The notes: generated from the letters alone by a model not told the origin. DNA of 64,000 nucleotides from a phage (GCA_012343875.1 GCA_012343875.1_3924.1); one strand, 5' to 3'; counted from the stretch's first letter, positions 47,003 through 47,557 are shown. A program made the numbers and translations.

Positions 47003-47077
47003 TGGTACTGTGAGAAGGATTCGAACCTTCTGCCTTTCGGTTATCAGCCGAATGCACATCCATATGTGCTTTCACAG
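47003..47077 (-). tRNA. tRNA-Ile (GAT)
   Basis: Anticodon stem TTCGG/CCGAA with loop CTGATAA, T-arm GAAGG-TTCGAAT-CCTTC, CCA. Confidence 0.7.
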
Positions 47078-47557
47078 CTTTGTTACCCCTTCGTGTACCT
47101 CTCTGTGGCAATTTGCACACAGTAATACACACTTATCAACTTCAGACTTCATTACCTCTATAGAGAAGTGTTTTTGTCCTACTGTGAAGTCCTTTGTATT
47201 AGGGTCTAAGTGGTGAAACTCTAAAGCCTTTATGCACTTATTGTATCCACAAATTGAGCAACAACCACCTTTGTAATCAACTAAAACCCTCTTAAGTTTG
47301 TCACGAGACTTTTTAACGTGTTGTGACTTCGCTTTCTTTTCTTCATCGGGGTTTTTGTATTGTTTCAGAATACCATTTGAAATACATTCATCACAATACT
47401 TTCTTGATTTTGGTGTTTGCTTGCCACATGAATGACAAGAGCCTTCTTGTCTTCTTTTTGGATGACTCTTGTTGTTTACCCTTGCAGCACAAGAGCGTGA
47501 ACAATACTTTCCACCTTTAACGGCTTTGTTGTCACAATCTTTATTAGCACAAAACAT
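47072..47557 (-). CDS. HNH homing endonuclease with N-terminal zinc-finger motifs
   Basis: C-terminal CSICGYNKC...LEFHHLDPNTKDF...CANCHREVH (HNH) plus N-terminal Cys-rich region; track ORF trimmed to ATG 47557 to avoid overlap with tRNA-Met. Confidence 0.65.
   Translation of the reverse strand: MFCANKDCDNKAVKGGKYCSRSCAARVNNKSHPKRRQEGSCHSCGKQTPKSRKYCDECISNGILKQYKNPDEEKKAKSQHVKKSRDKLKRVLVDYKGGCCSICGYNKCIKALEFHHLDPNTKDFTVGQKHFSIEVMKSEVDKCVLLCANCHREVHEGVTKL

Follow-up and report, generated by a model that had tools for sequence, protein, structure and literature searches.

How does an intact endonuclease gene come to lie between two complete tRNA genes of a phage, with its last codons running into one of them, and what kind of gene is it? 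This question is raised by a 64,000-nucleotide (nt) stretch of phage DNA (GCA_012343875.1; hereafter 'the window'), in which a first-pass annotation made from the sequence alone had placed an HNH homing endonuclease gene between tRNA-Ile and tRNA-Met, on the same strand as both. The location, the orientation and the neighbours proved to be correct. The window belongs to a Felix O1-like phage (Felixounavirus): the 7-kb stretch around the gene matched 405 phage records, the closest of which (95–97% identity) were MET-P1-301, KEP3, garuso, Felix O1, typing phage 1 and wV8. The gene lies inside an array of 26 tRNA genes, all predicted by ARAGORN on the minus strand between 43184 and 48889. The observations described below make it highly probable that it is a free-standing homing endonuclease of a known kind, an HNH counterpart of T4 SegB and of the F-Tfl enzymes of T5, with a putative nuclease activity, target site and homing behaviour.

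The insertion site in related phages

Inspection of the records of related phages identified three states of the junction between tRNA-Met and tRNA-Ile. In the filled state, tRNA-Met was followed by a leader of 16–17 nt, the HNH gene and a tRNA-Ile gene named allele A. This state was found in 12 records: KEP3, Henu11, Henu12 (whose copy is interrupted by the end of the record), Felix O1 (two records), FO1a, garuso, Sl26, L27, S.Kent 1-2-1, MET-P1-301 and OPT-SAL01. In the second state, exemplified by REP5, BPS17W1 and skuden, tRNA-Met and allele A were separated only by the dinucleotide AA or AT. Since allele A was present at an identity of at least 95% in 47 records, 12 of them filled, about 35 records contain this exact empty site. 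In the third state, found for example in TP1 and wV8, tRNA-Met was followed by a single A and by a differing tRNA-Ile(GAT) gene, allele B, detected at an identity of at least 95% in some 110 records. The 2-nt spacer between tRNA-Met and tRNA-Ile is therefore occupied in the window by a 493-nt insert, both flanking tRNAs being intact. Among the relatives, carriers and non-carriers of the HNH gene have the same tRNA-Met sequence, and allele A was present in every HNH-positive genome. The comparison of arrays with and without the gene, which the first-pass annotation had proposed as a check, thus yielded both presence/absence and exact empty sites. A group I or group II intron and an intein were also considered and discarded: complete tRNAs lie on both sides, Rfam found only tRNAs, and there is no in-frame host gene.

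The gene, its parts and its immediate neighbours are as follows.

47003–47078, minus strand: tRNA-Ile(GAT) 'allele A', the downstream boundary of the insertion (ARAGORN; Rfam tRNA model, 60.0 bits)
47072–47557, minus strand: gene for the HNH endonuclease (161 codons and a TGA stop), orthologous to Felix O1 ORF44/Felix01p085
47075–47272, minus strand: HNH (beta-beta-alpha-metal) nuclease domain, amino acids (aa) 96–161, with C100xxC103, H115-H116, C147xxC150-H151 and H155
47079–47571, minus strand: insert relative to the empty A site, 493 nt, with a CAA(T) direct repeat of 3–4 nt at its bounds
47378–47557, minus strand: N-terminal region, aa 1–60, two Cys4 zinc knuckles (C3, C8, C19 and C23; C41, C44, C55 and C58)
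47558–47573, minus strand: 16-nt leader from the CCA end of tRNA-Met to the ATG, with the Shine-Dalgarno sequence GGTGAT at 47566–47561
47574–47650, minus strand: tRNA-Met(CAT), the upstream boundary of the insertion (ARAGORN; Rfam tRNA model, 55.6 bits)
47655–47730, minus strand: tRNA-Lys(ttt) of the array, inside which the mechanical open reading frame (ORF) starts

The mechanical ORF call (47072–47716, 214 aa) begins within tRNA-Lys(ttt) and crosses tRNA-Met(cat). This longer ORF was rejected because it overlaps the tRNAs; it gave no Pfam match and contributed no additional domain. Moving the start to the ATG at 47557, as had been suggested to avoid the overlap with tRNA-Met, is backed by the GGTGAT upstream of it and generates a protein of 161 aa, the length annotated in Felix O1 (NP_944863.2), garuso and Sl26. 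The N-terminus so defined is that of the Felix O1 and garuso orthologs, and 29 diverse relatives also start to align at this point. The GGTGAT motif is common to all HNH alleles, the rest of the leader being variable. The view of the gene as a free-standing ORF also held, since the same 161-aa ORF occurs in relatives and is not part of a larger protein. At the other end, the TGA stop codon (47074–47072) corresponds to nt 5–7 of the acceptor stem of tRNA-Ile. Gene and tRNA overlap by 7 nt, and the first 7 nt of tRNA-Ile (GCTGTGA) provide the last bases of the final Leu codon and the stop codon of the HNH gene.

The encoded protein was identical to that of KEP3 (161/161 residues) and matched that of Henu11 at 158/161 and that of Felix O1 at 131/161 positions (125–131/161 for the Felix O1-type copies as a group). 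The window-type allele was shared only with KEP3, where it is unannotated, and with Henu11, where it is listed as a 'hypothetical protein'. The record of Henu11, a Shigella phage (L092), is filed under the genus Mooglevirus and carries the window-type cassette with 97% nucleotide identity; either the genus given in the record is wrong or the cassette is exchanged between genera. No HNH paralog was found elsewhere in the window. The GC content of the insert (37.2%) is near that of the window (38.9%), so that composition gives no clue to a foreign origin.

The tRNA-Ile alleles A (47003–47078 in the window) and B (L003, 5002–5077) hold the same position in the felixounavirus array, and yet only 39 of their 76 nt are identical (51%), and these fall for the most part in the four initial bases, the loops of the anticodon and T arms and the 3′-end. 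Both scored as normal tRNAs (60.0 and 62.3 bits, respectively, with Rfam). Allele A has an A at position 8, where U is near-universal, and both alleles have a G-U pair at 1:72. A source for allele A was sought among the tRNAs close to related HNH genes (80 viral loci plus T5), none of which exceeded 70% identity, a background value. TP1, which lacks the HNH gene, has the same 26 tRNAs as the window, in kind and in order; the insert therefore changes the tRNA-Ile allele but not the tRNA repertoire. The earlier proposal that the gene marks a likely recombination hot spot that could account for variable tRNA content thus survives in part: the mosaic structure of the region fits a recombination boundary, but the tRNA content is unchanged at this site.

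The history of the gene was traced through its alleles and its flanks. The HNH gene occurs as two alleles, one of window type and one of Felix O1 type, which differ at 15% of their nucleotides (85% identity; synonymous divergence, dS, 0.53), while the flanking tRNAs are identical, from which it follows that the history of the gene is older than, or separate from, that of its flanks. The Felix O1-type copies of MET-P1-301 and OPT-SAL01 share a 1-nt deletion that shifts the reading frame and leads to a stop at codon 88, which fits the degeneration phase of the life cycle of homing endonucleases. When the window was compared with its relatives in 200-nt blocks, it was 99–100% identical to KEP3 between 47000 and 47600, whereas the blocks that begin at 46800, 47600 and 47800 matched TP1, which lacks the HNH gene, at 100%. 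At 47001, two bases past the 3′-end of tRNA-Ile, the window departs from KEP3. On the other side, three sites located 250–300 nt upstream of the gene (47818, 47846 and 47873) read T/G/A in the other typed genomes with allele A, whether or not the gene is present, and A/A/G in the genomes with allele B. Among the typed genomes, only the window joins the cassette formed by the HNH gene and allele A with the A/A/G haplotype. The base preceding tRNA-Ile (A or T) was tried as a tracker of the HNH allele type and dropped, since Henu11 has a window-type allele with T.

The simplest reading of these comparisons would be the copying into a TP1-like genome of a segment, about 815 nt long at most, that included the gene and tRNA-Ile allele A and replaced allele B. 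A cassette set in flanks typical of gene-less phages has the pattern that would be expected from gene conversion, and may represent the expected product of break-induced repair from a carrier genome. Several of the properties by which a free-standing homing gene is recognized were found at this locus: patchy presence among close relatives, a precise and intact empty site, a history separate from that of the flanks, co-conversion of flanking markers and a cycle of degeneration. In the enzyme, the two N-terminal zinc knuckles would serve to bind DNA and the zinc-stabilised HNH active site to nick or cut it, and recombinational repair from an HNH-carrying genome would then copy the gene in. Since the two tRNA-Ile alleles are nearly devoid of homology, repair of an allele-B genome would cross over in tRNA-Met and beyond tRNA-Ile; with crossovers outside tRNA-Ile, the gene would drag allele A along, and HNH gene and tRNA-Ile would behave as a single cassette.

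Other junctions of the array vary as well. A segment within 45000–45400 is present in the window, TP1 and wV8 (in TP1 a 243-nt ORF is annotated in it) and absent from KEP3, garuso, Felix O1 and MET-P1-301. Between tRNA-Lys and tRNA-Met (at 47650/47651), 74 nt are inserted in KEP3 and MET-P1-301. A 60-nt stretch between tRNA-Tyr and tRNA-Asn (48334–48393) is missing from TP1 and wV8, and an 89-nt insert is found downstream of tRNA-Ile (at 46953/46954) in Felix O1, KEP3 and BPS17W1. As the combinations of these segments vary between phages, the array is a mosaic. The 430-nt gap between tRNA-Asp and tRNA-Lys (47731–48159) contains a sub-threshold tRNA-like match (47938–47988, minus strand, 22 bits, model positions 7–64) that is probably a decayed tRNA gene; in the record of REP5, an odd 131-nt 'tRNA-Thr' is annotated in this gap. 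Further and different HNH genes occur in the same array in Felix O1 (L002, 3639–4052 and 4970–5362) and in wV8 (L004, 4454–4858), at sites that are empty in the window. The tRNA-Ser(TGA)/tRNA-Arg(TCT) region differs in Felix O1 and wV8 near those genes, and it may be these, rather than the window gene, that are tied to differences in tRNA number.

The HNH protein and its presumed expression

The first-pass annotation had attributed to the protein zinc fingers and an HNH motif (CANCHREVH), and had made its reading depend on a match to an HNH profile. Such matches were obtained with the 'HNH endonuclease' families of PHROG, which align to aa 74–159 (phrog_2255, E = 2e-33; phrog_3106, 3e-24; phrog_35854, 2e-19). 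Database searches retrieved 2495 homologs at E ≤ 0.001, many of them carrying Pfam PF01844, and 7 of 30 aligned relatives matched the Pfam HNH model directly. Both CANCHREVH and the cysteines of the zinc fingers were recovered, and they are conserved: in the 30-sequence alignment C3, C8, C19, C23, C41, C44, C55, C100, C103, C147, C150, H115, H116 and H151 were invariant, and C58, N149 and H155 were conserved in at least 90% of the sequences. The two N-terminal zinc knuckles presumably constitute a DNA-binding module.

The best fold matches of the nuclease domain (Cap5, the Geobacter Gme HNH nickase, E. coli McrA and the HNH domain of Cas9) place it in the beta-beta-alpha-metal fold, the core that it has in common with these proteins. 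Its CxxC...CxxC zinc ligands are as in McrA and Gme, and a putative catalytic His follows strand 1, as in the solved nucleases. In contrast to the window gene, the genes for these solved zinc HNH nucleases are not mobile genes of tRNA arrays, and their products lack the N-terminal double zinc-knuckle module; in addition, the family of the window protein has a Lys where the solved nucleases have the central Asn. The Pfam, PHROG and structure searches returned HNH and zinc-finger matches only, with none to a GIY-YIG domain.

When compared with the Felix O1 allele, the ratio of non-synonymous to synonymous divergence (dN/dS) was 0.19 for the complete gene, 0.11 for the zinc-finger part and 0.17 for the HNH part. 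The intact HNH alleles are thus under purifying selection. Together with the PHROG match and the 2495 homologs, this value indicates that the ORF is not a chance reading frame.

Between the sites at about 48945/49036, which lie upstream of tRNA-Pro, and the gene, a scan of the minus strand detected nothing resembling a promoter or a terminator; a promoter-like site next occurs at 46987–46959, past tRNA-Ile. The gene is most likely transcribed as part of a tRNA precursor that would start upstream of tRNA-Pro, and it would be translated from its own GGTGAT-ATG. Cleavage of this precursor by RNase P at the 5′-end of tRNA-Ile would deprive the mRNA of its stop codon, a loss that would probably hold the level of the enzyme low.

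Several observations weigh against the assignment of the gene as a homing endonuclease or against parts of the model. The record counts given above for the three junction states include some duplicate GenBank/RefSeq entries. The roughly 35 genomes that contain allele A without the HNH gene indicate that gene and tRNA-Ile allele A are not an obligatory unit, and ordinary homologous recombination in a mosaic region would yield the same pattern of flanks as homing. The Pfam HNH and AI2M-like_HNH models aligned to aa 100–156 below their thresholds (14.1 bits versus cut-offs of 21–23, that of HNH being 21.4). By alignment, the invariant Lys K142 (47134–47132) takes the position that the H-N-H motif's central Asn has in McrA and in an intron maturase; its invariance across 30 divergent relatives makes it a family trait rather than a sign of decay, and it may explain the low Pfam score. 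NCBIfam contained no model for the protein. A PDB search with the single sequence gave only weak HNH matches (E = 0.06), and a PDB search with the family profile matched no solved structure. Finally, the promoter and terminator scan showed no enrichment over shuffled sequence, and the transcription model is therefore weakly supported.

Relatives in other phages and competing explanations

The closest known genes occupy the same locus. Felix O1 ORF44/Felix01p085, garuso_99 and Sl26 CDS0143 share with the window gene the arrangement tRNA-Met/gene/tRNA-Ile, the length of 161 aa, the 7-nt overlap and the layout of domains. The window gene differs from ORF44 in being a second allele (see above). 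For the Felix O1 genome, six genes resembling HNH homing endonucleases were reported, without experiments (PMC3185647).

Outside this group, a parallel in probable role is SegB of T4, a GIY-YIG endonuclease encoded in the T4 tRNA cluster. The motif recognised by SegB belongs to the T-loop of tRNAs; in T2L, its cuts fall preferentially in tRNA-Asn, and flanking tRNA genes are inherited along with it (PMC2330249). The end of the segB ORF abuts tRNA-Arg, and tRNA processing was proposed to damage the mRNA or remove its stop codon, as was also proposed for the F-Tfl genes of T5 (PMC2330249). The window gene resembles segB in being a free-standing endonuclease gene of a phage tRNA cluster whose ORF ends at the next tRNA; the proteins belong to different superfamilies, however, and have no sequence relationship. 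F-TflI/II/IV of T5 (hegA, hegC and hegD) offer another parallel: they belong to the HNH superfamily, are free-standing and lie inside the tRNA array, and they are described as site-specific endonucleases (PMC2330249, PMC10644984). In the T5 record, the overlap with the downstream tRNA is 14 nt for hegC and 23 nt for hegD. Membership of the F-Tfl enzymes in the same family was rejected: the best blastp match, to hegA, covered no more than 52 aa of the HNH core (E = 0.005), and hegC and hegD gave no match. True relatives with 30–38% identity, abutting tRNAs, were found in the T5-like phages S124, NR01 and GreteKellenberger; in S124, the HNH gene overlaps tRNA-Asp by 10 nt (L090, 3282–3291).

The distribution of the family was explored by scanning viral contigs with the family alignment. 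The best 80 matches (L010–L089), in contigs of about 4 to 436 kb, were dereplicated at 80% amino-acid identity into 52 clusters; this survey covered a single family and included no control family. In 50 of the 52 clusters, tRNA genes were present within 3 kb, mostly on the same strand as the HNH gene. A tRNA started within 100 nt past the stop codon in 37 clusters, and in 17 the 3′-end of the ORF overlapped the next tRNA (examples are L023, 2042–2051, L043, L054, L061, L066 and L074). In seven clusters the stop codon coincided exactly with tRNA positions 8–10 (U8-A9-G10, read as TAG); the equivalent in the window is TGA at positions 5–7. The immediate neighbour was tRNA-Asn in 27 of the 52 clusters, against about 10 expected; among all tRNAs of these loci its share is 10% (binomial P = 2e-7). 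Loci with this neighbour include L011, L013, L014, L024, L029, L030 and L061. Many of the neighbouring tRNA-Asn(GTT) genes are 86–90 nt long and have a long variable arm, which is unusual for a tRNA-Asn. In five loci tRNA-Asn genes flank the HNH gene on both sides, the two copies being 56–65% identical. These data suggest an HNH family that is specialised on tRNA arrays and carries tRNA genes along.

The same data lend some credit to a different explanation, compatible with homing, which we nevertheless consider rather unlikely: the gene could be a domesticated nuclease beneficial to the phage, the breaks that it would make in or next to tRNA genes promoting the exchange, replacement or amplification of tRNAs and thereby an escape from host defences that cut tRNAs. 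The near-constant association of the family with tRNA arrays, the excess of tRNA-Asn neighbours and the divergent tRNA-Asn genes on both sides of some HNH genes speak for this explanation, as does the linkage of the window gene to a replacement tRNA-Ile allele. A precedent exists in SegB: this enzyme, whose co-location with tRNAs is widespread, was recently shown to drive the amplification of tRNA loci as a countermeasure to the Septu defence (PMC13096335). Nevertheless, the gene was kept by only 12 of roughly 160 typed relatives, and two of these copies are frameshifted, which argues against a strong benefit in Felixounavirus. Further, the window and the non-carrier TP1 have the same tRNA content, and no tRNA duplication adjoining the gene was seen in the window.

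Decay of related copies raises the question of whether the window copy is itself an inactive relic, passively inherited with the tRNA array. The two frameshifted relatives, the replacement of the central Asn of the HNH motif by Lys and the sub-threshold Pfam score would agree with such an origin. However, the ORF of the window is intact and its product identical to that of KEP3, the zinc ligands and the His pair are all invariant, K142 is a feature of the family, and dN/dS is low over the complete gene and in the HNH domain, making a relic improbable. Least plausible of all is a non-mobile role, either as a packaging-associated HNH protein of the HK97 gp74 type that assists the terminase or as a zinc-finger regulator of tRNA processing: the tRNA array does adjoin the gene for the large terminase subunit in these phages, and the protein has zinc fingers of a nucleic-acid-binding kind, but in most close relatives the gene is absent and its site cleanly empty, whereas an essential packaging factor or a terminase-associated HNH protein would be expected in all related phages, and the relatives in other phages lie in tRNA arrays and not beside terminase genes.

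Significance of the locus and of the family

For the window alone, a probable free-standing homing endonuclease of this kind is of small consequence. In Felix O1, another allele of the gene already bears the label 'HNH endonuclease', and the presence of such genes in phage tRNA clusters has been known since SegB and the F-Tfl enzymes were described. The new details are the exact anatomy of the insertion, the use of tRNA-Ile bases as a stop codon, the replacement of tRNA-Ile in linkage with the gene and the recombinant nature of the window. The locus offers, besides, a clean natural example in which the filled site, the exact empty site and the site with a different tRNA-Ile all survive in sequenced relatives, and the window looks like a fresh recombinant. 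A cross between a carrier and a non-carrier could therefore measure both homing and the co-conversion of the tRNA.

The habit of the family could have wider implications. It is conceivable, and we propose it only tentatively, that these genes form an HNH homing lineage specialised on the tRNA arrays of very different phages, and thus an HNH counterpart of SegB. Insertion would typically be flush with the 5′-end of a tRNA, which would supply the stop codon (often U8-A9-G10, read as TAG), and the members would travel as cassettes of endonuclease plus tRNA by which isoacceptor genes are replaced or added (tRNA-Ile in Felixounavirus, mostly tRNA-Asn elsewhere). The association with tRNA arrays is timely, since a counter-defence role is now attributed to the tRNA genes of phages, and SegB can drive the turnover of these genes. 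If the proposal is true, this HNH family would be a main driver of the turnover of phage tRNA genes.
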